The position numbers were made by a program, and so were the translations under genes. Shown piece by piece: positions 3,449 through 58,606 of a stretch of DNA of 64,000 nucleotides (position 1 is the first letter of the stretch; each line of letters opens with the position of its first letter). The notes beneath the pieces are model-generated. The model made no database searches. It was not told where the DNA came from and saw nothing but the letters and a program-made list of their open reading frames with translations. Location of the stretch: sequence record SRR22947727_4895. One strand, written 5' to 3'.

Positions 3449-6142
3449 CTATTTTTTCTTCTTAGATGCGAGCGACTTGATGTAGAGAATGATTGAATCG
3501 ATTTCGTGATCTTTTAGCACGCCGAGATACGATGGCATTCCAACTCCGGTTTTTTCAGTTTCGAATCCCTTTTGAACATTGCGGGCGGGGTCGACAATTG
3601 ATTCGCGGAGATAGACTTCGTCGACGCTTCTTAAAACGACACCGTCAGTGAATTCGCGTTTTGAACCCCACAAACCAAGCCAACTTGGGCCAACAGCGAC
3701 CGCTGCCGCCGCTGCGCCCACCGTTTGCTTTAGCGCTTTCCCATCGACGCTGTGACAGACAACGCAGCCGTATCTTGTGGCGGTTTCTTTTCCGGTCGCC
3801 ACGGTCGGTTCGATCTTTTTCATCGCTTCGGTCGCTCCTGCTTTTAGCGTCAGATCAACTTTGTTGGAATCGAAGCCTTCCGCTTTCAGATCAATTTTAT
3901 TCAGTGAATTGACCGTCAAATAGGTGCTCGCGATTTGAGGTGTCTCGGCTTTCGGATTTGGCACGCGATAAGTCATTCGAATCGAGTGAACCGGCTTCAT
4001 GTTTGGCAGGCCGATGAAAACCGATTTTTTATCAGAAGAAAGCATCGCGCTGGCAACCGGCATTGTCTCCTGACCAGGTGTGCCATCGAGTTTGTAATTC
4101 CCCGAGCCGTAGCTGTGGGTCTGTTTGTAATTCCAGCAATCCACCGTGTAGTTTGCCAAATTTGTCGCGGTGGCTTCATCAACGAGCTGATCAAATTTCA
4201 GTAAGATTCCTTTTTCTGATGAACGGACGTCTTGGGGAATCCACGATGGACCGCCGTCATGAGTCACTCGGTAAAGTCCTGAAATTTGGTCCGCCGCTGT
4301 GCCCCAAATCTTGAATCCCGTCAGCCAAAGTGAGCCATCGATCGGGTGAATCCGCGGCTTCATGATGCCCGAAGGAAAGCCATGCATGATGGATGAAACG
4401 GCGCCGTTTATTGGAGGCGATTTTTTGGGATTTGTTGGAGGCGAGAGATCATCTGGCGCGGCGTCGAAGTAAACTTTGAAAATCTCAGGCCGGTTGTAAC
4501 CGACGTGAATCAGCGAATTATTCAAAGGTCCCAGCTTCGCGTTTCGAGTCCAAATTTGGCTCGCGCCACTTTGATTTACGAAATGTGGAATGTGAATTTC
4601 AGGCTGATCAATCGGTGCCGGATGAACGGCTTTTTCCTTAAATTGCGCTGGCTGAAATCCGTAGTAATCGCCTTTTCGCACGATATGAATCGGCGTTGCC
4701 GGCTTCCAATGCCCTTGTTGGTCACTTGCTGTGACAACGCCCGTTTTAGGGTCAACCCCGATGTAAGGCATTCGAAATCCTGTGGCGATGACTTCAAAAG
4801 ACTTTCCATCTTTCGCGATTTCAACCACCGTGCCGTTGTGTTTCCCGCGCGTTGTCGAAACCTGCCCGCCTTTTGCGATGTAGAATCCGCCACCTGGTTT
4901 TTCCCAAATGTCATTCGCGAACTCCCGCGTCTCGGCTGTTTGTGAAACGAGATTGCAGAAGTTTTCGTAAAAATCGGCTTCGCCATCTCCGTTCTCGTCA
5001 TGCAGTCGAACGATCCCATTTCGATCAAAAACGTAAATTTTTTCGTCCGAAATTTCGAGTCCGATCGGGTCGTGAAGGCCGGACGCGAAGCGTTTCCAAG
5101 TCACGTTTTGGAGGTCGCCTACAAGGTTTTCGACAATCCAGACATCGCCATCAAATGTGGAAAAAGCGGCCCGACCATCAGAGAAAAAATCGAAGGCGGA
5201 AAGGCGGACGTTTCGCTTCCAAGGGTTGTCGAGCGGGAGTGCTATTTCTTGAAGGTCGAACCCATTCTCTGCCAAATCATTTGTGAGCTTAGTTGTTTTC
5301 AGTTTTTCGGACCAAATCGCGGAAGCGGGTTTTTCCCAATGGTGCACCAGGTCGAATACGGTTTTCTCACCGTCTCCAAAAACGGCTTCCCCCCAAATCG
5401 CACTGCTTTCCTTTGGGCTGAATTCTTTGAACGTAGGCTCCCCGTTTGCCCTCGGCTGCAGCATCGTGATTTTTTTATCAACTTCTCCAAGAGCAATCCG
5501 CCGACTGACAACGCCATTTTTTGCATCAACCGAAAGCCGTTCCACCACTTCGACTCCGTAGACTTCGTATTCGAGCGCAATCGTATCTTCATGGATGCGA
5601 ATGCCTTTCCAGTGGAGCCCATCGATCGGGCCAAGTCCGTGCTCATCCAAATCAACTGATCGCTCACGAGGATCTTCCGGTTTATCAGGAGCACTGCCGA
5701 GATACCAACCCGGAACACATTTGGTTGCTACGAGTGGTGTCCCGATAATACGCGGCAAACTTTTTTGGCCTGCTGAAGCTTTTCGATTTGGCAAACGATA
5801 GCTTCCTGTGCTCATCGCATCCATTGTCAAATATTCGCCGTCTTCGTTCTCTTTCCAAATCAGCGCGACCCGAAGTAAATCGGTATCGAAACAGGCGTAG
5901 TAGCCGTGGCCGAGTTTCAAAATAATGCTACGCGGCGTCAGATTATCTTTAGGCCAATCACCGCCGAGATGACGCGCATCGAGCGTGTGGGAGAAAAACG
6001 GGAAATCTCTCTCAATATACGAACCCCAGGGAGAATCGAGCGCGAGATGCGATTTTTGCTGAGCGAACCCCGTCGCCGATGCAACCAGCAAAATAGTCGA
6101 AAAAATGAGGGTATAAATTTGAAACGGAAGTGCGTTCTTCAT
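3449..6142 (-). CDS. PVC-type DUF6797-like beta-propeller protein with C-terminal cytochrome c
   Basis: Signal peptide, LP.DNPW..VR.S.FDF..DGR....T..GDVW and FASGLH.P.G repeats, CVVCH heme motif, and a YLRESIVDP...MP.Y cytochrome tail. Confidence 0.75.
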   Translation of the reverse strand: MKNALPFQIYTLIFSTILLVASATGFAQQKSHLALDSPWGSYIERDFPFFSHTLDARHLGGDWPKDNLTPRSIILKLGHGYYACFDTDLLRVALIWKENEDGEYLTMDAMSTGSYRLPNRKASAGQKSLPRIIGTPLVATKCVPGWYLGSAPDKPEDPRERSVDLDEHGLGPIDGLHWKGIRIHEDTIALEYEVYGVEVVERLSVDAKNGVVSRRIALGEVDKKITMLQPRANGEPTFKEFSPKESSAIWGEAVFGDGEKTVFDLVHHWEKPASAIWSEKLKTTKLTNDLAENGFDLQEIALPLDNPWKRNVRLSAFDFFSDGRAAFSTFDGDVWIVENLVGDLQNVTWKRFASGLHDPIGLEISDEKIYVFDRNGIVRLHDENGDGEADFYENFCNLVSQTAETREFANDIWEKPGGGFYIAKGGQVSTTRGKHNGTVVEIAKDGKSFEVIATGFRMPYIGVDPKTGVVTASDQQGHWKPATPIHIVRKGDYYGFQPAQFKEKAVHPAPIDQPEIHIPHFVNQSGASQIWTRNAKLGPLNNSLIHVGYNRPEIFKVYFDAAPDDLSPPTNPKKSPPINGAVSSIMHGFPSGIMKPRIHPIDGSLWLTGFKIWGTAADQISGLYRVTHDGGPSWIPQDVRSSEKGILLKFDQLVDEATATNLANYTVDCWNYKQTHSYGSGNYKLDGTPGQETMPVASAMLSSDKKSVFIGLPNMKPVHSIRMTYRVPNPKAETPQIASTYLTVNSLNKIDLKAEGFDSNKVDLTLKAGATEAMKKIEPTVATGKETATRYGCVVCHSVDGKALKQTVGAAAAAVAVGPSWLGLWGSKREFTDGVVLRSVDEVYLRESIVDPARNVQKGFETEKTGVGMPSYLGVLKDHEIDSIILYIKSLASKKKK

Positions 6143-6196
6143 GAAAATTCCGGGCGTTGAGGAGGTGGAGTTCGGTTCGGAAATGATTTAAACAAA

Positions 6197-6241
6197 ACGA
6201 GCCAACAGGGTTAGTTCATCGAATGAACCCTGTTGACTCGT
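6197..6241. repeat. 45-bp modular repeat, palindromic form
   Basis: acgagccaacagggttagttc-atc-gaatgaaccctgttgactcgt is a near-perfect inverted repeat. Confidence 0.92.
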
Positions 6242-6260
6242 AGAAATGCGGAATGTGTTC

Positions 6261-7628
6261 TTAGATGCCTTTCACTTCCCAGCCTTCACGATAGGTGTCG
6301 TGGACGAGCGCGTTGGCTTCTTCCGAATTCGTGAATTTTGCAGCAGCATCATCCCAGACGAGTTCTTTGCCTGCGAGCTGCTGGGCGACGGTTCCGAGTA
6401 ATACGGCTTCGCTCATCGGACCGGCATAATCCCAGTTTGCGACCGGCTTTTCTGAAGTCTCCCCCCGAATGTGAGCCACGAAATCTTTGTGGTGACTTCC
6501 TGCTTCGGCAGGATCCGGAGTCTCATCGACTTTTTTACCGTCGCGAAACAACGTTGGCATTCCCCCGTGAGGAATTACCAGTGCGCCCGTCGTTCCAATG
6601 ACGACACTTCCGTTTCGCGGAACGTTGTGAACGTCTTTCCCGTCGCCATTTTTCGTAACGCCGCCGAGTGCATCAATCACCCATTGATCAGGGAACTGGT
6701 TGCCGTCATACCATGTAAAATCGAAATCACCATCGGACTGATCGTTGCCTTTCATCTTATGATGAACCTTGCCGTTCACGGGCCAAGAATCGCCATCGAC
6801 GATTCCAACGCCATGACTCGTTACAGAAAGTGTTACGGGCTGATTCAATCCCTGAAACCACGGATGATAAATATGACAACCCATGTCACCGAGGGTTCCC
6901 GTTCCAAAACCGATGCGCTTCCGCCACTGGCTCGGGTGAAATTCTCCCGTGATGTAGCTACGCTTTTTGCCAACTCCAATCCAACCATCCCAATCCAGTG
7001 TGCCGGGAACTTCATCGACGCGATCTGGAAGAGGCTTCATTGAGCCCCACGATTTCCCGATCATGCTGTGGACGGATTTTACTTTCCCGACGATGCCTTC
7101 GCGCAGCCATTTTACCGAGGTTTTGTTGCCTTGGCCCGAGCCGACCTGAATTCCCATCTGCGTTGTGATGTTGTTCGCTGCTGCATATTCACGGAGCGTC
7201 CGTGCTTCATGAAGGGTCCTAGTAAGAGGCTTTTCGCAGTAGCAATGTTTGCCAAGCTGCATTGCGCTCATCGAAATCGGCGCGTGCATGTGATCCGGCG
7301 TTGCGACCACGGCGACGTCAAAATTATTTGCCTCTTTTTCCAAAAGCTCACGCCAGTCTTGATAGATTTTTGCTTCAGGGAATCCTTTGCCCACTTTGTC
7401 GGCACGGCGAAGGTCGATTTCGGCTGCTGCCACCAATGTTGCGTTGTTCACACCGGCCATGGAAGAAATATTTCCCCAGGCCCGGCCATTGGTTCCAAAA
7501 GCCACGTAACGGATATTGCCGCTTGGAGCGCCGTTTGCGGTTGTTTTCCAACCAATGTAGGGAGCCGCAATTGCTCCTGCGGTGGCGGTTTTGAGAAAGT
7601 TGCGTCGTGAATTATTCTTAACTGACAT
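6261..7628 (-). CDS. Gfo/Idh/MocA family oxidoreductase, Tat-exported
   Basis: SRRNFLK twin-arginine signal and ATPDHMH, YCEKPL and G.LGDMGCH motifs. Confidence 0.92.
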   Translation of the reverse strand: MSVKNNSRRNFLKTATAGAIAAPYIGWKTTANGAPSGNIRYVAFGTNGRAWGNISSMAGVNNATLVAAAEIDLRRADKVGKGFPEAKIYQDWRELLEKEANNFDVAVVATPDHMHAPISMSAMQLGKHCYCEKPLTRTLHEARTLREYAAANNITTQMGIQVGSGQGNKTSVKWLREGIVGKVKSVHSMIGKSWGSMKPLPDRVDEVPGTLDWDGWIGVGKKRSYITGEFHPSQWRKRIGFGTGTLGDMGCHIYHPWFQGLNQPVTLSVTSHGVGIVDGDSWPVNGKVHHKMKGNDQSDGDFDFTWYDGNQFPDQWVIDALGGVTKNGDGKDVHNVPRNGSVVIGTTGALVIPHGGMPTLFRDGKKVDETPDPAEAGSHHKDFVAHIRGETSEKPVANWDYAGPMSEAVLLGTVAQQLAGKELVWDDAAAKFTNSEEANALVHDTYREGWEVKGI

Positions 7629-7723
7629 GTTTCAAGCGTAAATGAAAATTCACACGCTCGTCAATGGCGTGAAAAGCGTAATTTTAATTCCTCGCGTCGC
7701 AGTTCCAGTATCCGCTTTTTCGT

Positions 7724-7885
7724 TTACCGAAAGAGGAGCAGGTGCATGATCAACACGGCGATGAAAAACCAAACGAGGCCGAGAGTGCAGAGAATCAAAA
7801 TGCAGCCAAGATAGCAAAAAGTCCATGTCCAGGGAGAAGGGCGCGCCGCTCGTTTTGCACGAAGTTCCGCCCGTGTGTCCTCCAT
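7724..7885 (-). CDS. Putative 53-aa small membrane protein (not in the ORF track)
   Basis: ATG 7885 to TAA 7724 encodes MEDTRAELRAKRAARPSPWTWTFCYLGCILILCTLGLVWFFIAVLIMHLLLFR: a basic N-region followed by a long hydrophobic stretch. It fills a gap between co-oriented genes. Confidence 0.5.
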   Translation of the reverse strand: MEDTRAELRAKRAARPSPWTWTFCYLGCILILCTLGLVWFFIAVLIMHLLLFR

Positions 7886-7975
7886 CAATCTCGAATTGTC
7901 CTACATGAAAAAATTGTGACTCAGAATCGAATTTGATTCCATTATAAAATATTGCGAGCGGCAGTTCAGTGTATT

Positions 7976-9793
7976 TCACCCCAGCGCCTTCAGCATCGCC
8001 TTCTCCACTAAAATTGCAGCAAGTTCTTCGGTGGCTTCGTCGAGAACTTTATTCGCGGCCTTTAGTTTTGCGACGTCCTGAGCTTCGTCAGCGACAGCTG
8101 TTTTGACTTCGTCGACTGCGGATTGAATCGACGCCAATTCATCGGCAGAAAGTTCATCGCCAGCCATCGAAATGGCTTGCACAACCGCGGGAATCAGTTC
8201 GTCGCTTTTCAGTTTCGCTTCGGTCCAAATCCGCGCGTTCATGTCGTCGAACGCGTAATCGACAGATTCGCTGATCATCGCCTCGACCGCTTCATCATCG
8301 ACATCGACGGCAGAGTTTTCGATTTCTAGAACGCGATCTTCGCCGGTATTTGTATCTCTGGTCAGGACACTCAGAATTCCGTTTTCATCGATGGAGAATT
8401 GAACGCCGACACGCGCGGACCCTTTTGCACCGGGCTCAAAATCGAGTTCGATTCGTCCGAGTTCCCAGTTGTCTTTTGCGATTTCGCGCTCGCCCTGCAA
8501 GACACGAACCAACATCGATTTTTGGTCACCAACGGCATTGGTGAAGAGCTCGCCGGCTTTTGCCGGAATCGTTGTGTTACGGGGAATGATCACATTCATC
8601 AACCCACCAAAGGTTTCGATGCCGAGCGAAAGTGGCGTCACATCAAGGAGGACAACTTGCTGAACTCGACCGCACAAAATCCCTGCCTGAATCGCTGCGC
8701 CAAGGGCGATCGCCTCGTCAGGATTCTGCGAAATGTCAGGCTCAATCCCAAACCATTCAGCAACGAGTTTTCGTACTAACGGAATCCGCGTCGAACCGCC
8801 GACAAGGATTACACGATCCAACCCTGTTGATTCATCGATCCAACCCTGTTCGATCGTGGTGCGTTTGCAAAACGTGCGGGTCAGTTCGATCACGGGACGA
8901 GCGATTTTTTCAAATTCGGGGCGGCTGATTTCGAGTTCGAAACTGTGTTCGCCGTCAAAAAATGGCAGTAAAATTTTTGCGGTCTCGGTGTCGGAGAGCT
9001 GCTCTTTCGCAGTTCGAGCTGCCGCGAGAATTTTGGTGCGTTCTTCGCCGGTGAAATCGGATCCCAGCTCGAGTTTTTCGGCAATGAAATCGGTTACGGC
9101 GTCATCGATGTCGTCTCCACCGAGGTGGGTGTCACCTGCAGTCGCGACGACTTGAAAAACGCCGTCGCGCATTTCGAGCAACGACAAATCAAACGTCCCT
9201 CCGCCGAAATCGTAAACGGCGACACGGGCATTCTCGTCGAGTTTATCGAGTCCGTAGGCGAGGGCGGCTGCGGTGGGTTCGTTGATGATTCGTTCAACGG
9301 TCAGCCCGGCGATTTCTCCGGCTCGTTTCGTTGCATTCCGTTGGGCATCATTAAAATAGGCAGGAACGGTGATCACGGCACGTGTAATCGATTCTTCGAG
9401 GGCGTATTCGGCGGTAACCTTCAATTTTGCCAGAATTTTTGCCGAAACGTCTTCGGGTAGAAGCGTCTCTCCGTTCGCCGAAATTGCAGCCCAGCCATCA
9501 TTTAATCGGGTGATCTCAAACGGGCTTTTTGATTTTTCCTCGGCGGGAATTTCATCAAATCGTCGACCGACCAGGCGTTTGATCGAGGCAAACGTCCGTT
9601 TGGGAGCGACCGCTGCCATTCGCCGGGCGGGTTCGCCAACGAGGACGTCTCCTTTTTCTGGAAAATGAACGATCGAAGGTAGGATCCGATTGCCATTCTC
9701 ATCGGCTAGTAGAATGGGAAATCCGGAATCAACGACGCCAACAAGCGAGTGCGTGGTGCCGAGATCGATGCCGATGATGGTGTTTGAAGACAT
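7976..9793 (-). CDS. Hsp70 family chaperone (DnaK paralogue, possibly HscA-like)
   Basis: [44 protein letters not shown] and DVTPLSLG motifs. Short C-terminal lid; no dnaJ or grpE adjacent. Confidence 0.93.
8813..8857. repeat. 45-bp modular repeat, tandem (head-to-tail) form, inside the Hsp70 CDS
   Basis: acgatccaaccctgttgattca + tcgatccaaccctgttcgatcg + t. Same architecture as 14695-14739 and 34388-34432. Confidence 0.85.
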
Positions 9794-9915
9794 TTAACAA
9801 AAAGGAGCTGGAAGCTAGGAGCCAGAATGATGGAGAATTAGGGCGCGGTGCTCCGATTTTGAAAGGTAAATTTTGAAGATTGGATCCTAAGATCGAAAAC
9901 CTTCTAATCAGAAAC

Positions 9916-9951
9916 AAAAAAGCGGGCCCGATTGAATATCGGAGTCGCTTT
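9916..9951 (-). terminator. Probable intrinsic terminator downstream of the rhodanese gene
   Basis: Imperfect stem aaagcgggcccga/tcggagtcgcttt with an A6 run on the + strand (U-tract on the - strand). Confidence 0.55.
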
Positions 9952-9979
9952 GCTGGAGAGGATTGGGGAATTGCAATGT

Positions 9980-10399
9980 TTACACCTCCGGATCCGATTT
10001 TGACTTCGCGTCATCGATTTTTTCTCCGGCACCGATCCAGCCAGAAATACCACCTGAGAAGTGGACTACGTTTGTGAACCCAAGTTTACGGACTTCATTG
10101 ATCCCGGCTTGATACGCGGTGCACGACGGGCCGCCGCAATAAGCGACGATGAGCATCTTTTTATCTTTGGGCAGTACCGCGGCGAGTTGGTCTTCGTTTT
10201 TCCTAAAATCGATCGCGCCGGGGAGATGACCCTTGGAATAGGATTTGGTGCCGTTCACATCGATCAGCAATACGGTGCCTTCGGCGATGGCCTTTTTCAG
10301 ATCCTTGATGCTGATGTCAGGATATTCTTCATCGGCGGCAAATACGGATGTCGTAATGGCCGCAAAGCTAAGGGCAAGGATGGTAAAAATGGATTTCAT
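9980..10399 (-). CDS. Secreted rhodanese-like domain protein
   Basis: Signal peptide MKSIFTILALSFAAITTSVFA, LIDV, GHLPGA, YCGGPSC active-site loop and GGISGW. Confidence 0.88.
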   Translation of the reverse strand: MKSIFTILALSFAAITTSVFAADEEYPDISIKDLKKAIAEGTVLLIDVNGTKSYSKGHLPGAIDFRKNEDQLAAVLPKDKKMLIVAYCGGPSCTAYQAGINEVRKLGFTNVVHFSGGISGWIGAGEKIDDAKSKSDPEV

Positions 10400-10507
10400 G
10401 ATTTGAAAGGGTTCAGTATTCAAAACGATAAGAGAAGCGATTTCTTAGTCGATTTCAGATTTGAGATTTCCAAATTGCGACGACAGGTTCCTTTTTACCA
10501 ATACACG

Positions 10508-11179
10508 ATGGCCGATTCCCGAATGACTCGCGAACAACCGCCGCTTCCGTTTAAAGCCGTCATGATCGGCTGGGCGGCTGCGACGCTGATTCGCGTTGTG
10601 TCGCTGACCCTGCGTTGGCGAATGGAGGATCGGGCGAAGATTTCAGAGAATCCGCCGGAAGGTCAGATGATCTGGGTTTTCTGGCACAATCGAATTTTCG
10701 TGGTGCCGGTCGCCTATCGGAAATACTTGAAATCCCGGAGCGGGGCGGTATTGACCAGCGCGAGCAACGACGGCGCGATCATCGCCGCGACTGTAAAATG
10801 CTTTGGGGCAGATGCTGTTCGCGGATCGACTTCACGTCGGGGAGTGGCCGCTTTGCTGGGTTTGGTTGAGTGGGTGAAAGGCGGATTCGATGTCGCGATT
10901 ACGCCCGATGGTCCTCGTGGGCCACGTTATCGACTGGCGCCCGGGTTGATCAAACTCGCGCAGACAACTGGAGCTTCCATTTTGCCGGTTCGGATCGAAT
11001 ACAGCTCGTTTTGGAGTTTTCGGAGCTGGGACAAATTTCGCGTTCCCAAACCATTTTCACGTGTGACGGTTATTTTTGAACCACTGGAAATGATTGACCC
11101 TGCCGTCGAAGGTGATTCTTTTGAAGCCGAAAGAAAACGAGTCCAACAGATTTTAAATCCCACGAATGAAACTGATTGA
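10508..11179 (+). CDS. Lysophospholipid acyltransferase family (DUF374) protein
   Basis: [17 protein letters not shown] and ITPDGPRGP motifs. Start reassigned to ATG 10508. Confidence 0.88.
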
Positions 11180-12047
11180 AGGAAAACCAATCGCCGCCGC
11201 AGTTTACGAAGAATGCGCGCGCGAACTTGAATTGTTAAAAGCTGCGGGCGTAACGCCTGGTCTGGCTGTCGTTCTGGTGGGCGAAGATCCTGCATCGCAA
11301 GCCTACGTTGGGATGAAGGATAAAAAATGCAAGGAACTCGGCTTGCATTCGGTGAAGCTTGAGCGGCCTGCCACTATATCTCAGAGGGATCTAGAAGCCC
11401 TTGTTGAAGAACTGAACACGGACGATTCGATTCACGGGATTTTGGTGCAAATGCCGTTGCCTGGTGATTTGGACGCAGACGCGGTCATCAAAAAAATCGC
11501 ACCCGAAAAGGATGTCGATGGACTGCATCCGCAGAATCTCGGGAAAATCGCCAGTGAAGACCCGACGGGATTTGCCCCGTGTACCCCGTTCGGCAGTCAG
11601 CGCATGTTGATCGAATCCGGCATCGAGACATCGGGAAAAAGCGTCGTTATTGTTGGCCGTAGTTTGCTTGTTGGAAAGTCGCTCGCCCTGTTGATGATGG
11701 GCAAAGGCCCCGGCGCAAATGCCACCGTGACGGTTGCGCATTCCCGCACGAAAGATTTGGCCGCAGTGACTCGCGAAGCCGACATTCTCGTGGCAGCCAT
11801 TGGCGTGCCGCATTTTATTACAGCCGACATGGTGAAAGATGGCGCCGTCGTGATCGATGTGGGGATCAACCGCGTTGAAGACGCCACTGCCAAGCGTGGA
11901 TATCGTCTCGTCGGTGATGTCGATTTTGATGCCGTGGCTGAGAAATGCGAAGCGATTACCCCCGTTCCCGGCGGAGTGGGCGTGATGACGATCGCGATGC
12001 TGATGGCGAATACGATCCGTGCGGCGAAGTTGAAGGCGGGTTTGTGA
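11166..12047 (+). CDS. folD: Bifunctional methylenetetrahydrofolate dehydrogenase/cyclohydrolase
   Basis: [44 protein letters not shown] and TPVPGGVG motifs. Confidence 0.97.
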
Positions 12048-12127
12048 TTGGGGGTAAAAAATTCCAACTTCTCAAAAATCCGCTACCTATTCGGCTGGGC
12101 TATGCGTCTATCTTTGTGGACTCACCT

Positions 12128-14632
12128 GTGACTGACGATTTTCCCATTTCAAATCTCGAAGACGAACGCCTCTGCATTGCTGGAAAGCAGTTTGCAGTTG
12201 GGGATGCGGCGTTTTTTGTCAAAGCGGTGACCTACGGGCCGTTTGCTGAATCCGTCGATCACGCCACGGAATTGGCTCGGGTGCGCGACAAATTGGGGGC
12301 CAATGCGATCCGGATTTATGAAGTTCCGTTGATCGATTTTCTCCACAAGGCGGCGGAAGCTGGACTGCGGGTTTTCATTACGATTCCGTGGACGCAGCAT
12401 GTCGATTTCCTCAGCGAACGGTCCGCACTAAAAGCGGCTCATGAAACGATTCGTGATGCGGCGACTCGATTTCGCGGTCACCCGGCGGTTGGTGGTTATT
12501 TTGTAGCGAATGAAATTCAATCAACCCTCGTCCGCTGGATGGGGCCGGCTCGGGTGAAGCGGGCTCTCGAATCACTCATCGATACTGGAAAAAAAGCAGA
12601 TCCCGCTGCGCTTTTCAGTTACGCAAATTACCCGACAACCGAGTATTTGCAGCCGTCTAACCAGGATTTTGTGGCTTTCAACATCTATCTCGAATCGTCT
12701 GAAACCTTTGGGAAGTATCTACGGCGGTTGCAAAATTTAGCGGGCGACAAACCGCTGTTTCTTGCCGAGTTCGGAGTCAACACAAAGGCGAGCGGCGATG
12801 AAAAACAGACGGAAATGCTGAGCTGGCATCTCGATGAAGTTTGCGCTGCGGGGCTGGCGGGAACCACGATATTTGCGTGGTCTGATAATTGGAAGCGCGG
12901 TGGCGAATCAGTCACGGGCTGGGATTTTGGGCTGATTCGGCGAGATGGAACGGCCAAACCAGCACTCCTTGATTTGTCGAAAAAATGGGAGGAACTCAAA
13001 TCCCCAGCCGATGGAATTAGACTCACTGAGACTCCAAAAATCTCAGTCATCGTCTGCACCTATTGCGGATCAGCGACCTTGCGGGGCTGTTTGGAATCGC
13101 TCGAAAAATTACGGTATCCCGATTACGAAGTTGTCGTCGTCAACGATGGTTCAGATCCTGAAGTGACGGCGATTGCGGAAAAATTCCCCGAATTCATTCT
13201 CAAAAACATCGATCACGGCGGTTTGAGCAATGCGCGTAATTTAGGTGCCCAAATCGCAAGTGGTGAGATTTTTGCCTACACCGATGACGACTGCGTGGCG
13301 CCGCCGGATTGGCTGTCGTGGCTGGCGTTTGCCTACGAGCAGAACCCTGAATTTTTCTGTCTTGGCGGGCCCAATATTCCGCCGCCGCCTCAAAATTTTG
13401 AGCAAGCATGCGTAGCCGCTTCTCCAGGAGGCCCGGCTCATGTTTTGCTGACTGATCAGATCGCCGAGCACGTTCCCGGCTGCAATTTGACCGTTCGTCG
13501 TGAGGCTTTCGAGGCTATCGGCGGGTTCAATCCTGTTTTTTGGACAGCAGGCGACGACGTCGATTTTTGCTGGCGACTCGAGGATGCCGGATTTGTGATC
13601 GGCTTTCACCCGGCAGCGTTCGTGTGGCATCACCGGCGGTTCAGTTTTAATACCTACCTGAAGCAGCAAAGCGGATACGGAAAAGCCGAAGCGATGCTGA
13701 TCCCGCTGCACCCTGATAAGTTTGGCGAGATCGGTGGGGCACGATGGCATGGCTCGATTTACGAGCCCGCTCGGCAAAATATGTCGGGCAGTTTTTCACG
13801 AATTTACCAAGGCGTTTTCGGCTACGAACCCTACCAAATGATCTACGGCGGAGGCAGTTCCGTGTTCGGGTACATCGTAGGAACCGTGCAATGGCTTGCG
13901 CTTGGCGTTGCTCTAGCTGCGCTTGGTTGGTTGTTCCCCAGTGTCGGAGTGATCGGGATTTTGATGCTCGGAACAAGTGTTTTCCACGCGTTGCAAAGCG
14001 GTTTCAACGCACCAATCCCAATTAGCCAATCGCGTTTCGCGTCGCGGATTTGCCTTTCCCTTTTAGCCTTTGCTCAACCGTTTGTTCGCAGTTTTAAGCG
14101 CTTCACAGGAAGTCTGAAACACGCTCATTTGCCATCCCGTTTTCCTGATTCGATCGGCCCATTTTTCTTCCCTGAGTTCAAGTTCCTGACCCGGTGGAAG
14201 CGTTACCGATTTTGGAGCGAATCCGGCGTCGGTCGCGACGAGCTACTTCATGAAATCCTCCATGGTGAAGAACGTCCCAATTCGATTCCTGTTCGCGCGG
14301 GAACCGGTTGGGAAAATTGGGACATCGATCTTCCCGTTGGGCTTTTCTGGGCGCTCCATCTTCGCACCGTCACCGAATATCATGCAGCCAAAGATCAGCT
14401 GACACGTTGCAAACTCGAATCCCGACCGACGTTGTTGACCGTCATTTGGCGAATCGCAGCGATCATAGGGTTAATCTTTTTGTGGAAAAACGGCGACCTT
14501 TTTTCTCTCGCTGGAATCACCGGTTGGGCCGCGCTGTTCTTCCCCGATTTGTTTTTGCTCAGCGGATTTGTCCGCGGCTCAAAATGCCTCAAACGCGCGG
14601 CGAAGGCAGTCGGGCTAGCACGAGCGAAATGA
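12128..14632 (+). CDS. Fusion of a clan GH-A (GH2/GH5-like) TIM-barrel glycoside hydrolase domain, a GT2 glycosyltransferase and membrane helices
   Basis: N-terminal GANAIRIY, ANE and AEFG motifs. GT2 motifs ISVIVCT, DGS, ARN.GA, TDDDC, IGGF and GDDVDFCWRL. C-terminal hydrophobic helices. Start (GTG 12128) is uncertain. Confidence 0.85.
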   Translation: MTDDFPISNLEDERLCIAGKQFAVGDAAFFVKAVTYGPFAESVDHATELARVRDKLGANAIRIYEVPLIDFLHKAAEAGLRVFITIPWTQHVDFLSERSALKAAHETIRDAATRFRGHPAVGGYFVANEIQSTLVRWMGPARVKRALESLIDTGKKADPAALFSYANYPTTEYLQPSNQDFVAFNIYLESSETFGKYLRRLQNLAGDKPLFLAEFGVNTKASGDEKQTEMLSWHLDEVCAAGLAGTTIFAWSDNWKRGGESVTGWDFGLIRRDGTAKPALLDLSKKWEELKSPADGIRLTETPKISVIVCTYCGSATLRGCLESLEKLRYPDYEVVVVNDGSDPEVTAIAEKFPEFILKNIDHGGLSNARNLGAQIASGEIFAYTDDDCVAPPDWLSWLAFAYEQNPEFFCLGGPNIPPPPQNFEQACVAASPGGPAHVLLTDQIAEHVPGCNLTVRREAFEAIGGFNPVFWTAGDDVDFCWRLEDAGFVIGFHPAAFVWHHRRFSFNTYLKQQSGYGKAEAMLIPLHPDKFGEIGGARWHGSIYEPARQNMSGSFSRIYQGVFGYEPYQMIYGGGSSVFGYIVGTVQWLALGVALAALGWLFPSVGVIGILMLGTSVFHALQSGFNAPIPISQSRFASRICLSLLAFAQPFVRSFKRFTGSLKHAHLPSRFPDSIGPFFFPEFKFLTRWKRYRFWSESGVGRDELLHEILHGEERPNSIPVRAGTGWENWDIDLPVGLFWALHLRTVTEYHAAKDQLTRCKLESRPTLLTVIWRIAAIIGLIFLWKNGDLFSLAGITGWAALFFPDLFLLSGFVRGSKCLKRAAKAVGLARAK

Positions 14633-14640
14633 ACGATTTT

Positions 14641-14739
14641 TCGAACCAAAAGGGTTGATTCATCGAACTTACCCTGTTGCTTCGAAACTGCTTCACGAAC
14701 ATACCCTATTGAATCTTCGAACAGACCCTGTCCGATCGT
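14641..14739. repeat. Double 45-bp repeat: palindromic copy (14641-14685) plus tandem-form copy (14695-14739)
   Basis: tcgaaccaaaagggttgattc-atc-gaacttaccctgttgcttcga, then acgaacataccctattgaatct/tcgaacagaccctgtccgatcg. Confidence 0.9.
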
Positions 14740-14771
14740 GGCAGGGTGTGCTAGCGTGAGCGGAGAGAACT

Positions 14772-15182
14772 ATGCAAATTGGGCGACACATCACAAATCA
14801 AATCGGAGCGGCGCTACTGGAAGTGGTGATAGCGACGACGGTGTTTGCGACGGTCGGCACTGCTCTCGTCATTGCGGTTAATGAAATCGGGAAGCTCTCG
14901 CTGGAAGTTCATAAGGAGGTTTATGTATCGACGCGGCTGCAATCGATTTTGGAGGAAAACAGCAAGGTGCCGGATATTCGCGAGGGGGAATTGAAAACGA
15001 AGCCGGATGATCGCGGGGTGGTTTTTGAAACAACGGTGGAACCGATCGAAATTCGGACGGCGGAGGATTTTTTGCTGCCGCAAATGTTTGTGATCAAAAC
15101 ACGCGGATTGTGGATGGAAAATGGAACGAAGCAGGAATTGACTGCAGAAACGTATCGCTATGCACCGATGTTCAGACAGTAA
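14772..15182 (+). CDS. Type II secretion minor pseudopilin (GspI-like)
   Basis: Prepilin-like G|AALLEVVIA with Glu at +5 and a hydrophobic helix; first gene of an overlapping operon. Confidence 0.72.
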   Translation: MQIGRHITNQIGAALLEVVIATTVFATVGTALVIAVNEIGKLSLEVHKEVYVSTRLQSILEENSKVPDIREGELKTKPDDRGVVFETTVEPIEIRTAEDFLLPQMFVIKTRGLWMENGTKQELTAETYRYAPMFRQ

Positions 15183-15909
15183 ATTTTCAGCCGAAAATGG
15201 TCGGGGCGGTTTTACGCTGCTGGAGGTGACGATGGCGATGGTGCTGGCGATGATGTTGCTCGTTGGGATTTTTGCGGTGGCCACGGGAACGACGCAGATC
15301 ACGGATGAGATCAGCAAGTTTCAAAGCCGGGAGACTCAAAAGCAGGCGTTTACCCAACTTTGTCGACGAACCTTGAAAGGGCTTGGAGCGGAAGCGCAGC
15401 TTCAACTGGATACGGTTTCGGGGCGGCGTGGTGGGTATTTATCGAAGCTGATTATTGATCGCGATCCGTTGGCGTTTTCGTTCAGTGCGATGCCTCCGGG
15501 GGCGTCGCGGGTGGTGTTGTATTCGCAGTCAATGGCGGGAGGAGATCTCGCAGTTTGGCTGAAATATTTGAATCAAGAGGAGGTCGAAGCAATGGACAAC
15601 GGCGAATGGAAAGGGCTGGGAACGGATCTTCGATTGCTTGGAAATGTGTCAGCTTTTGAGTGGCGATTTTTTAATCGGGTGACCGGGGAATGGTCGAACG
15701 TGTGGGAACCCGGAGCGGAACGCCCGTCGCTGGTGGATTTGAGTCTCGGAGTGGATCAGGAGACGCCGTTGCGTCATGTCTTCTGGATTCCGAAATACGA
15801 GCAGGCGGAGCAGTTGACTCGCGGATTTACCCAAACGGATGCGAACGGTGGCGTGCCAGGGGAGGAACCAAATGGGGAGGTCGCACCGGGGGGTGGGATT
15901 GAACCATGA
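15160..15909 (+). CDS. Type II secretion minor pseudopilin (GspJ-like)
   Basis: RGG|FTLLEV N-methylation site and a C-terminal F.WRFF......W...W......P..V motif typical of GspJ. Confidence 0.8.
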   Translation: MHRCSDSKFSAENGRGGFTLLEVTMAMVLAMMLLVGIFAVATGTTQITDEISKFQSRETQKQAFTQLCRRTLKGLGAEAQLQLDTVSGRRGGYLSKLIIDRDPLAFSFSAMPPGASRVVLYSQSMAGGDLAVWLKYLNQEEVEAMDNGEWKGLGTDLRLLGNVSAFEWRFFNRVTGEWSNVWEPGAERPSLVDLSLGVDQETPLRHVFWIPKYEQAEQLTRGFTQTDANGGVPGEEPNGEVAPGGGIEP

Positions 15910-19303: not shown

Positions 19304-19445
19304 GCAATCCAATAGGGTGTGTTCGATGAATCAACCCTACCAAATCGCGTCCGGGTTAACTCGTTGTATTTCAATAAAAACGTCGTCGCAAATTAGTGGG
19401 GGCCTGACAGGCGGTATCGCCGGTCGTATATTTCTGATTGATCGA
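19304..19445. repeat. 45-bp repeat carrying a ~98-bp internal cassette (19339-19436)
   Basis: caatagggtgtgttc-gat-gaatcaaccct [cassette] attgatcga. The cassette is homologous to 29485-29577. Confidence 0.85.
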
Positions 19446-21918: not shown

Positions 21919-21962
21919 ACGATTCAACAGTATCTGATCGCCGAACCGACCCAGTTCGATCA
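21919..21962. repeat. 45-bp modular repeat, degenerate palindromic copy
   Basis: acgattcaacagtatctgatc-gcc-gaaccgacccagttcgatca. Confidence 0.7.
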
Positions 21963-29449: not shown

Positions 29450-29587
29450 TCGATCATACCCTGTTGATTCGTTGAACATACCCTACCAAATTGCGTCAGG
29501 GTTGACTCATTGAATAAAAAAAACGTTATCGCGATCTGGTGGGCTTTTGACAGGCGGTATCGCCGGTCTTATTTATTATTGATTCGT
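29450..29587. repeat. 45-bp repeat (tandem form) carrying a ~93-bp internal cassette (29485-29577)
   Basis: tcgatcataccctgttgattcg/ttgaacataccct [cassette] attgattcgt. Confidence 0.85.
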
Positions 29588-34333: not shown

Positions 34334-34432
34334 ACGAACCAACAGTATCCGTTCATCGAACGTATACTATTGGTTCGAAAAGCCATTTCGAACAGACCCT
34401 ATTGATTCGTCGAATATACCCTGTTCGTTCGT
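34334..34432. repeat. Double 45-bp repeat: palindromic copy (34334-34378) plus tandem-form copy (34388-34432)
   Basis: acgaaccaacagtatccgttc-atc-gaacgtatactattggttcga; tcgaacagaccctattgattcg/tcgaatataccctgttcgttcg. Confidence 0.9.
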
Positions 34433-34488
34433 AAAACCGTGTTTTGCAGGTTGTAAAAAATTCGGCATCCTGCTTCAATCCTCGCACT

Positions 34489-39947: not shown

Positions 39948-40045
39948 ACGAACCAACAGGGTTGGTTCGATGAACATACCCTATCTGATCGAAAAGGTGT
40001 TTTGAATGAACAGGGTTGATTTGGCGAATAGCCCCTGTTGCTTCG
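39948..40045. repeat. Double 45-bp repeat, two palindromic copies
   Basis: acgaaccaacagggttggttc-gat-gaacataccctatctgatcga and tgaatgaacagggttgatttggcgaatagccctgttgcttcgt. Confidence 0.88.
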
Positions 40046-48991: not shown

Positions 48992-49036
48992 TCGATCTAA
49001 CAGGGTATGTTCGATGATCCAACTCTATTGGATCGT
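48992..49036. repeat. 45-bp modular repeat, palindromic, overlapping the GT2 stop codon
   Basis: tcgatctaacagggtatgttc-gat-gatccaactctattggatcgt. Confidence 0.85.
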
Positions 49037-49810
49037 TGAAAACCATTTGGTGGCCTGCTTTGCGGCGATGCGACTTTTTTCGTGAAGCGCGGATTGGAGG
49101 GCTTTGAATTGGGCTTCGTTGGCGACTCCGTTTTCTAAAATACTGAGTAGCGCGAGGACGCGCCAGCGATCGATCCCGCCCTTGACGTTTCCGGTGAGTT
49201 GGTCGGGGTGGCCTCCGTATTTTGCGACTAAATCCTCGCCTTCGATCAGGCCGATGCCTTCATACATTGCGATTCGCATCCACAGCTCGTAGTCTTCGCA
49301 AATACGGAAAAATTCGTCGAAGCCGCGCGTTTCTTCCCACAAATCGCGTTGGATCATCACGGCGCTGGGGCTGATGCAGCAGCGTTTGGTGCACTCTTCG
49401 AAAATGTCGCCGGCGGGTTGCGCGAGGTGTCTGGGCTTGCGGGCGTGGTTGCCGTTTCGAATCCAAATTTCTTCGCACTGTGAAATGCGAAGGTCGGGAT
49501 GGGCGTTGTGAAATTTGAGTTGGCGGGCGAGTTTTTCGGGGAACCAGCGATCGTCGGAATCGAGAAAGGCGATCCATTTCCCGGCTCCAGTGGCGGCTCC
49601 TCGATTTCGGGAAGCGGCTGGGCCCAGATTTTCGTCGTTCCGCAACCAGATGATTTTTTGTGAAAAATCGGCTGAATTGAGTTCGGACGCATCATCAACA
49701 ACGATCAGCTCAAAATCCCGAAACGTTTGTTCGAAAACGGATTCGATGGCTCGCGCCAGCATTTCAGGTCGATCAAATGCCGGAATCACGATGGAAACGA
49801 GCGGTGTCAT
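49025..49810 (-). CDS. Glycosyltransferase family 2 (GT-A)
   Basis: VSIVIP, VVDDAS, RNRG, FLDSDD and EDYELW motifs. Confidence 0.9.
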   Translation of the reverse strand: MTPLVSIVIPAFDRPEMLARAIESVFEQTFRDFELIVVDDASELNSADFSQKIIWLRNDENLGPAASRNRGAATGAGKWIAFLDSDDRWFPEKLARQLKFHNAHPDLRISQCEEIWIRNGNHARKPRHLAQPAGDIFEECTKRCCISPSAVMIQRDLWEETRGFDEFFRICEDYELWMRIAMYEGIGLIEGEDLVAKYGGHPDQLTGNVKGGIDRWRVLALLSILENGVANEAQFKALQSALHEKSRIAAKQATKWFSTIQ

Positions 49811-49910
49811 AACATCACTTCAATTAATGTTTGGCTCGTTGTTATCAATGGCATCAATTCGGTAATTTGAGGTAAGCTGCCTCAGACTTCAACCAAAGGA
49901 GCGCATTATC

Positions 49911-54244: not shown

Positions 54245-54289
54245 ACGAATCAACAGGGTCGGATCGATGGATCGCCCCTGTTGGATCGT
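54245..54289. repeat. 45-bp modular repeat, palindromic
   Basis: acgaatcaacagggtcggatcgatggatcgcccctgttggatcgt. Confidence 0.85.
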
Positions 54290-58561: not shown

Positions 58562-58606
58562 ACGATCAAATAGGGTATGTTCGCCGAACGAACCCTATTG
58601 ATTCGT
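58562..58606. repeat. 45-bp modular repeat, palindromic, between convergent genes
   Basis: acgatcaaatagggtatgttc-gcc-gaacgaaccctattgattcgt. Confidence 0.92.

Follow-up and report, generated by a model that had tools for sequence, protein, structure and literature searches.

A REP-like palindromic doublet in place of native loop codons in an Hsp70 paralogue, with near length-neutral counterparts in at least six other genes

Among palindromic repeats that reside within genes, the Rickettsia palindromic elements (RPEs) are said to have been described, by Ogata et al. in 2000, as surface insertions. The element considered here, a doublet of two palindromic units, occupies positions 8813-8857 of a 64,000-nucleotide stretch of sequence record SRR22947727_4895 (the whole of this stretch is hereafter called the window) and lies within a minus-strand gene for a paralogue of the chaperone Hsp70. 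Its closest described counterparts are the repetitive extragenic palindromic (REP) elements which, in the available parts of two accounts (PMC3733652, PMC3116915), number from hundreds to thousands of copies, are located mostly just downstream of genes and occur mainly as inverted doublets; the verrucomicrobium Opitutus terrae has tight REP doublets that are heterodimers with spacers of 1-2 bp. The same parts of these sources describe intragenic REPs and RPEs as inserts encoding 20-30 or more residues, and the available portion of the former (PMC3733652) reports in-frame intragenic palindromic repeats in tolerant parts of proteins from Rickettsia conorii and O. terrae, among others. Known in-frame palindromic repeats are thus treated as inserts that lengthen the protein, whereas in the case described here the repeat substitutes for a native loop in a chaperone and in at least six other proteins.

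The repeat copy in the Hsp70 gene and its counterparts

The product of the host open reading frame (ORF) matches the Pfam HSP70 family (E 2e-175) yet scores below the equivalog thresholds of both the DnaK model (NCBIfam NF001413; 615.9 against a cut-off of 648) and the HscA model (TIGR01991; 596.5 against 708.55), and is accordingly classified as an Hsp70 paralogue. The gene was matched in all 41 related genomes searched, with 55-100% identity across the best 34 places listed, and the same search detected a second, DnaK-like gene (~44% identity) elsewhere. The reading frame of this conserved gene is intact and the repeat is in frame: the 45 bp form exactly 15 minus-strand codons, as an earlier note on this DNA had claimed, and their translation gives T313-R327, immediately followed by VILVGG. 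The segment consists of two 21-nt units in the same orientation, with starts 22 nt apart, that score 32.2 bits (A') and 26.8 bits (B') in the same copy as scanned in locus L001. In the AlphaFold2 model, residues 306-315 form a helix, 316-326 a coil and 327-331 a strand, with T313-E315 as the predicted end of the helix and R327 opening the VILVGG strand; the confidence across the repeat segment is moderate (pLDDT 70-75) and supports the loop topology, no more.

Whether the repeat was added to the protein or stands in place of native sequence can be judged from the length of a block that comprises the 15 repeat residues and three residues on each side, compared with repeat-free orthologues. The block has 21 residues in the window against a median of 19 in 27 repeat-free orthologues (19 in 22 of these; 21 in three, L004, L006 and L024, all of the same family; 23 in one and 18 in one), and the solved DnaK chains aligned to the window protein show a gap of two residues only. 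The native loops follow the pattern AL-DAG, four to six residues, and LD-x; in the window protein, EQG occupies the position of D/A-A-G and LDR that of L-D-x. The nearly equal block length, together with the takeover of the D-A-G and L-D-x positions, supports the conclusion that the repeat stands in place of native loop codons of Hsp70. Both the replacement and the mimicry of the native pattern had been proposed in the earlier note, and both hold in the orthologue alignment: the excess of two residues over the median is far below the ~15 residues that a plain insertion would add, and the peptide is not present in repeat-free orthologues, so that the objection of chance similarity fails. The lengthening of a protein by the repeat's own length, a feature of the RPE type, is not observed at the window copy; it is observed at a separate copy in a genome from another genus (G020; see below).

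The hsp70 gene of the nearest genome (G001) is 100% identical to that in the window, repeat copy included, and a protein variant at 99% identity (P0002) has the same loop. In runs X6, X11 and X13, which come from three other studies, window positions 5500-15500 are spanned by single contigs that differ by 24-39 substitutions and are free of indels; the 40 differences listed for these contigs (there are 41 more) all lie outside 8813-8857, and the one nearest to the repeat, 8860 T>C, leads to Ala, as in P0002. A contig from a fourth run (X10) covers 8289-9341 with two differences. Because G001, P0002 and the contigs of three studies agree through the repeat, misassembly, which the earlier note had named as a possible objection, is ruled out. 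No presence/absence polymorphism of the hsp70 copy was seen in the four public runs, as represented by contigs, from which rare variants drop out. According to the labels of the runs that contain the sequence, the host organism is marine.

The state of this loop differs among relatives, of which G001, G002 and G003 represent the same genus. An exactly corresponding doublet, in the same register and in hairpin form, is found in G003 (77% identical; ..NEQGLFDEPTLLDR) and in L053, a named Akkermansiaceae metagenome-assembled genome (MAG), where the sequence is ALTEQGMVDDPTLLDR. G002 (80%) has a shorter, unrelated 13-residue loop without any unit of at least 7 bits, and P0003 (88%; protein only) is repeat-free, with a shorter, unrelated loop of 14 residues compared with 16 in the window. 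The copies in G020 and its clade (P0006-P0018) differ in register and orientation and lengthen the loop, as plain insertions, by ~6 to 16 residues. The G020 block reaches 37 residues (+16 aa), with the native ALGAAG and GIDR retained on both flanks; in the clade, native ALGAAG.. and ..GLDR are likewise retained on either side of the inserted residues. The tree of the genus has the form (G003,(G002,(P0003,(window,P0002)))), with supports 99/98/99/96, and L053 is placed outside the genus clade in the trees; the approximately unbiased (AU) test does not reject a grouping of L053 with this clade (p 0.124). The hsp70 doublet is probably ancestral in the genus, as far as can be judged from these sequences. 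G002 and P0003 lack the native D-A-G motif as well as the repeat, and for this reason may be taken to descend from an ancestor with the repeat, which would have decayed in them. A search of metagenome contigs did not yield DNA of the P0003 lineage (the best loci are 88% identical to P0003), so that the polarity is read from protein alone.

The same relationship between repeat and protein length is found in six further intragenic copies, which were compared with orthologues from the same 41 genomes. With the number of repeat-free orthologues given in brackets, the doublet block measures 21-22 residues against a repeat-free median of 20 (25) in HemC, 21 against 19 (19) in a PBP1C-like protein, 22-23 against 18 (23) in squalene-hopene cyclase, 21 against 17 (23) in a binding protein, 21 against 19 (17) in the L075 protein and 21 against 18 (19) in the L052 protein. 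The smallest doublet block thus exceeds the median by 2 residues in Hsp70, 1 in HemC, 2 in the PBP1C-like protein, 4 in the cyclase, 4 in the binding protein, 2 in the L075 protein and 3 in the L052 protein, and the mean excess over the seven genes is 2.6 residues compared with ~15 for plain insertion of a doublet. In four of the seven genes the end of the repeat coincides with identical native residues (LDR in Hsp70, FD in PBP1C, DR in the cyclase and PVD in L052). These data support the conclusion that near length-neutral replacement recurs in at least six other genes. Longer states exist as well: the G001 cyclase has a block of 40 residues that results from a second doublet (+18 aa), the L075 protein has blocks of 32 (G020), 42 (G001) and 43 (G002) residues, and HemC one of 45 (G002). 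Eleven loci (L037, L045, L051, L083, L104, L116, L118, L130, L115, L119 and L050) were not counted as intragenic copies, and one candidate, L064, was dropped given that its ORF resembles an antisense, low-complexity frame.

Three of the loci deserve separate mention. In the HemC gene of G002 (L147), a further insertion of 23 residues that is absent from all other orthologues directly follows the doublet. The HemC gene of G004, which belongs to another genus (L146), contains a decayed doublet, and there is no exact unit of either subtype (see below) anywhere in this genome; this doublet has the appearance of a remnant left by a repeat family now extinct in G004. In G003, the PBP1C-like gene has a second doublet (L172, 1508-1550), right at the 5' limit of the frame as delimited by stop codons and probably upstream of the true start.

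The repeat family and its variation

The unit of this family is a 21-nt, near-perfect palindrome, the arms of which, CGAnCnAAC and GTTnGnTCG, enclose an asymmetric core of 3 nt (AGG or CCT); the position table yields the consensus CGA-W-C-C-AAC-AGG-GTT-G-G-W-TCG. Two different units of this kind make up the 43-nt doublet. The 15-mer occurs six times in the window at no more than two mismatches, compared with 0.24 occurrences expected, and none of 100 shuffles reaches six. Genome-wide, the unit pattern with up to one mismatch is found 1,500 times in G001, 1,039 in G002, 1,677 in G003 and 1,042 in G020, whereas G009 has no more than 12 matches; as a control, the pattern in reverse gives 0-3 matches per genome (3 in G001). 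In an exact-pattern scan across species genomes, the family is almost confined to MAG records of Verrucomicrobiales. No Rfam family was matched within the window.

A census of architectures across 978 kb of loci plus the window yielded 358 units in 192 elements, and 159 of the 166 unit-to-unit spacings are 22 nt. The 145 doublets include 118 inverted ones (the hairpin form), 25 direct ones (the tandem form, to which the hsp70 copy belongs) and two everted ones; in the window, three of 12 doublets are tandem, which makes this a recurrent minority form. The two units of one doublet resemble each other less than partners assigned by shuffling do (0.551 versus 0.633; none of 2,000 shuffles falls below the observed value), which indicates that the doublet is a heterodimer copied whole rather than built in place. 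The idea that the second unit is templated from the first by template switching was rejected, given that partners are no more alike than shuffled ones in any of the four genome groups.

Elements of the family in the window are listed in Table 1. Of the 12 present in all, ten are outside long ORFs or reach no further than the ends of these; hsp70 contains one, and another is situated at the edge of the window. The intergenic elements often begin 3-12 nt past a stop codon or include it. The minus-strand ORF 49025-49819 has its stop and its final codons within the doublet at 48993-49035, which implies that the repeat also supplies gene ends. The predicted RNA fold of the doublet at 58563-58605 has -19.6 kcal/mol (z -5.0), and the tandem-form hsp70 copy still folds into one long hairpin (-19.5 kcal/mol, z -3.6). 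Four-unit composites with unit starts 22, 32 and 22 nt apart, seen at three places in the window and at 2312-2408 of L215, recur between genes, and one is also present within the squalene-hopene cyclase gene of G001; this recurrence points to a form of the element that is of higher order and 97 nt long. A second repeat of ~105 nt (79-81% identical), without an Rfam match, is located at 19322-19429 and 29468-29572 and directly abuts a repeat unit at both places.

Table 1. Position of the host gene, the intragenic repeat copy and other elements of the family in the window
Feature	Position	Strand	Basis or remark
Hsp70-family paralogue, 605 aa, host of the repeat copy	7976..9793	-	Intact ORF
Repeat doublet, 15 codons, T313-R327	8813..8857	-	Translation; directly precedes VILVGG
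Unit A' (first in coding direction), AGG core on coding strand, read ..IEQGWI..	8836..8856	-	0 mismatches to unit pattern
Unit B', AGG core on coding strand (flipped state), read ..ESTGLDR	8814..8834	-	Unit-pattern scan; CCT in G003 and L053 orthologues
Hairpin-form doublet, intergenic between two minus-strand ORFs	6198..6240	.	Unit-pattern scan
Four-unit composite, starts 10 nt after ORF ending 14632	14642..14738	.	Unit starts 22/32/22 nt apart
Degenerate doublet, intergenic	21920..21962	.	Unit-pattern scan
Four-unit composite, fills gap between ORF ending 34323 and ORF starting near 34435	34335..34431	.	
Four-unit composite between two minus-strand ORFs	39949..40045	.	Unit-pattern scan
Hairpin-form doublet between convergent ORFs, includes stop codon of ORF 49025-49819 (-)	48993..49035	.	
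Hairpin-form doublet, intergenic	54246..54288	.	Unit-pattern scan
Hairpin-form doublet, most of 57-nt gap between convergent ORFs	58563..58605	.	Unit-pattern scan

The intragenic copies change in two characteristic ways. First, orthologous copies differ by an exact inversion of the 3-nt core (AGG/CCT) in three of the four genes compared. The core of the second hsp70 unit is CCT in G003 and L053 but AGG in the window, so that the window codons tca aca ggg correspond to cca acc ctg in G003; this inversion explains the tandem form of the hsp70 copy. HemC (G003 and G020 versus G002 and G004) shows a flipped core too, as does the cyclase (G002 versus G003 and G001), and no flip is seen among the orthologous PBP1C copies compared. 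The flip toggles the encoded peptide between Pro/Ser-Thr-Gly and Pro-Thr-Leu.

Second, the units fall into subtypes that are specific to genomes. Units with T4/A18 number 31 in G001, 80 in G002, 11 in G003 and 374 in G020, and those with A4/T18 number 308, 55, 417 and 0, respectively; the loci of the L053 genome have mostly C4/G18 units. The paired positions 4 and 18 thus vary between genomes in a compensatory manner (A/T, T/A, C/G), and no covariation at these positions was detected within genomes. Orthologous intragenic copies carry the subtype of their own genome, which implies that they are either homogenised with the genomic pool or re-created.

Origin of the intragenic copies

Insertion of a whole doublet followed by loss of the native loop codons is the reading we favour, at roughly an even chance. 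The data establish that the copy belongs to the family, that it brings no gain in length, that this recurs in further genes, and that cores flip and subtypes are specific to genomes; the succession of events, the deletion and the homogenisation are inferred. A whole doublet would have entered the loop-coding DNA of the Hsp70 paralogue in the ancestor of the genus, in a register that spells a hydrophilic peptide (T.EQG...EPTLLDR). The native loop codons would then have been lost, with the repeat peptide assuming the native D-A-G and L-D-x positions, probably through a deletion between the terminal GATCG of the element and the native Leu-Asp-Arg codons, GAYCG, that precede VILVGG. Subsequently, the copy may have been held near the family consensus through exchange with the genomic pool or by selection and, in the window lineage, the core of the second unit would have been inverted from CCT to AGG, which would change the hairpin form to the tandem form and Pro-Thr-Leu to Ser-Thr-Gly. 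The insertion stage is supported by plain insertions made by this family (+16 aa in the hsp70 loop of G020 and +18 aa in the cyclase of G001), and uncompensated or half-trimmed states are present in genes other than hsp70. Altogether, the plain insertions, the intermediate lengths and an excess that is always positive fit insertion followed by loss. If true, this course of events would show that the repeat was protected while native codons were discarded.

Several observations weigh against this scenario. No same-register doublet with an intact native loop was found among the 120 closest homologues. In the closest repeat-free relative, P0003 (88% identical), the loop has 14 residues of unrelated sequence; if the repeat was gained after the split from P0003, both steps would have to fit into a short time, which is less likely. 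The same register is found in L053, whose position in the trees is outside the clade of the genus (one clade with it is not rejected by the AU test mentioned above). Furthermore, the native variable loop is essentially gone and the doublet is whole in all seven genes, and random trimming would not be predicted to yield whole doublets in seven genes of seven unless the doublet was protected.

The alternative of one-step templated replacement is possible and less probable than insertion followed by loss. Under this alternative, the repair of a break or a stalled fork copied one of the ~1,500 repeats and overwrote native codons near length-neutrally, through ectopic gene conversion or a template switch, for which brief stretches of homology (GATCG, for example) would have served as anchors; the same process would homogenise the copies and flip the cores when the donor is inverted. 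Near length-neutral occupancy in all seven genes, the same register in three lineages separated by lineages without the repeat, and the unrelated loop of P0003 (14 against 16 residues at 88% identity) are consistent with such a process. So are the subtypes of orthologous copies, which require exchange with the pool or re-creation, and the exact 3-nt core inversions between these copies; the available part of PMC8604942 reports that template switching between inverted repeats of coding DNA makes their arms homogeneous and inverts the spacers. Against one-step replacement stand the plain insertions at the hsp70 loop itself (+16 aa) and elsewhere (+18 aa), as well as the excess of +1 to +4 residues, always positive, that a gain of 15 residues with subsequent trimming would be expected to leave. 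Repeat-free loops also show no general similarity to the unit at the DNA level that would have made them proto-sites: measured as the mean percentile of the best loop unit score relative to other windows of the same gene in repeat-free orthologues, the values for the seven genes are 0.68, 0.53, 0.56, 0.35, 0.51, 0.43 and 0.61, with only that of Hsp70 (0.68) raised, and this in rows that are related, so that the proto-site idea was rejected.

For the hsp70 junction itself, insertion followed by a microhomology-mediated deletion is an explanation at least as good as one-step overwriting. Of the mechanism put forward in the earlier note, length-neutral overwriting unlike simple RPE-style insertion, the near-neutral outcome holds, as seen in the block lengths and in a window copy that does not add its own length; a single-step mechanism is only possible, and the distinction from RPE-style insertion does not extend to the whole family, which also makes plain insertions in other copies. 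It can only tentatively be proposed that the family spreads and renews itself by microhomology-anchored templated replacement from a pool of ~1,500 copies, overwriting variable loops of essential conserved proteins length-neutrally, in concert with the genome subtype, and toggling peptides by core inversion. If a single templated event were responsible, this would be a new way for repeated DNA to rewrite protein sequence, and conserved enzymes would receive new stretches from selfish or structural DNA through a kind of mutation other than transposition.

Retention of the copy for a local function, as a protein-binding site or as an mRNA hairpin that acts on translation or decay, is compatible with either insertion or replacement as its origin and appears unlikely as an explanation. 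Orthologous intragenic copies remain near the consensus across genera in proteins that are only 55-65% identical, the differences at paired positions 4 and 18 between genomes are compensatory, and even the tandem form is predicted to fold into one long hairpin with the energy given above. The absence of covariation at these positions within genomes and of Rfam matches in the window speaks against such a function, as does the free decay of copies in several lineages (Hsp70 in G002 and P0003, the binding protein in G001 and the second unit of HemC in G001).

It is very improbable that the copy arose in situ, without insertion, by point mutation under drive or selection for the motif, in the manner of uptake sequences or HIP1. 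The unchanged protein length and the huge over-representation of the motif would fit, and uptake sequences are reported, in the available part of PMC2817400, to accumulate within genes at tolerant positions. However, the copy is a full 43-nt element with two unit types at the fixed 22-nt spacing and 27-32 bits per unit, whereas repeat-free loops score from -13 to +2.5 bits, so that dozens of directed substitutions would be required; moreover, multi-unit arrays and plain insertions represent copy-and-paste behaviour. Finally, an assembly artefact or a chimeric contig is refuted for practical purposes by the identical copies in G001, in P0002 and in indel-free single 10-kb contigs of three studies.

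Comparison with known systems

The family resembles REP elements and REPINs, doublets of these that RAYT transposases mobilise, in three respects: a short imperfect palindrome is present in 1,039-1,677 units per genome in G001, G002, G003 and G020; in these marine Verrucomicrobiales, the elements are mainly extragenic and near the 3' ends of genes (10 of 12 in the window); and an inverted doublet appears as the replicating unit (118 of 145 doublets inverted, 159 of 166 spacings of 22 nt). It differs in that the consensus lacks a GTAG or CGTC tag and in that a single unit already has near-perfect palindromic symmetry about its asymmetric core of 3 nt. Matches to the Y1 transposase domain (PF01797), to which RAYTs belong, number one in G001 (with a stop), one weak match in G003, six in G002, 17 in G020 and 15 in G009. 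The numbers of Y1 genes do not track those of the repeats, with 15 in the repeat-poor G009 and nearly none in the repeat-rich G001 and G003. Among the six loci examined out of 40 matches, none has a Y1 gene flanked by doublets, and five have no unit of at least 12 bits; the sixth (L264) has one single weak unit of 13.7 bits.

With RPEs and 'REP-decorated proteins', the hsp70 copy shares the presence of a palindromic repeat in frame inside a conserved, intact gene. The difference is that the doublet of this family adds 0-4 residues net and assumes native conserved positions, in all seven genes.

Uptake signal sequences and DNA uptake sequences (USS/DUS), as well as the highly iterated palindrome HIP1, have 8-12-nt cores that arise by point mutation and are present in thousands of copies, often paired as inverted repeats behind genes. 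The likeness to these systems lies in the many intragenic copies that do not change protein length (PMC2817400, available part). The family in the window is, in contrast, a 43-nt structured heterodimer that also forms three- and four-unit arrays and plain insertions, which does not agree with an origin by substitution.

Spacer inversion at inverted repeats is described, in the available parts of two studies of template-switch mutation (PMC8604942, PMC8794818), as a class of mutation. With a 3-nt core enclosed by two perfect 9-nt arms, the exact flip seen here is the product that such an event would leave, in a single multinucleotide step that alters the protein. Template switching would account for the flip from the hairpin to the tandem form and not for the arrival of the doublet; moreover, partner units are not homogenised. 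The literature searched gave no account of near length-neutral occupancy with native mimicry, of subtype tracking at orthologous intragenic sites or of core flipping in intragenic repeats; the tables of intragenic REPs in PMC3733652, a source available in part, may contain such or similar cases.

The repeat described here imitates conserved residues, remains fresh from one genus to another and alters the peptide that it encodes when three bases are inverted. Whichever way the native codons were lost, the copies provide a natural series of loop-swapped enzymes, and the family, which is without an evident transposase, offers an opportunity to study REP-like spread.

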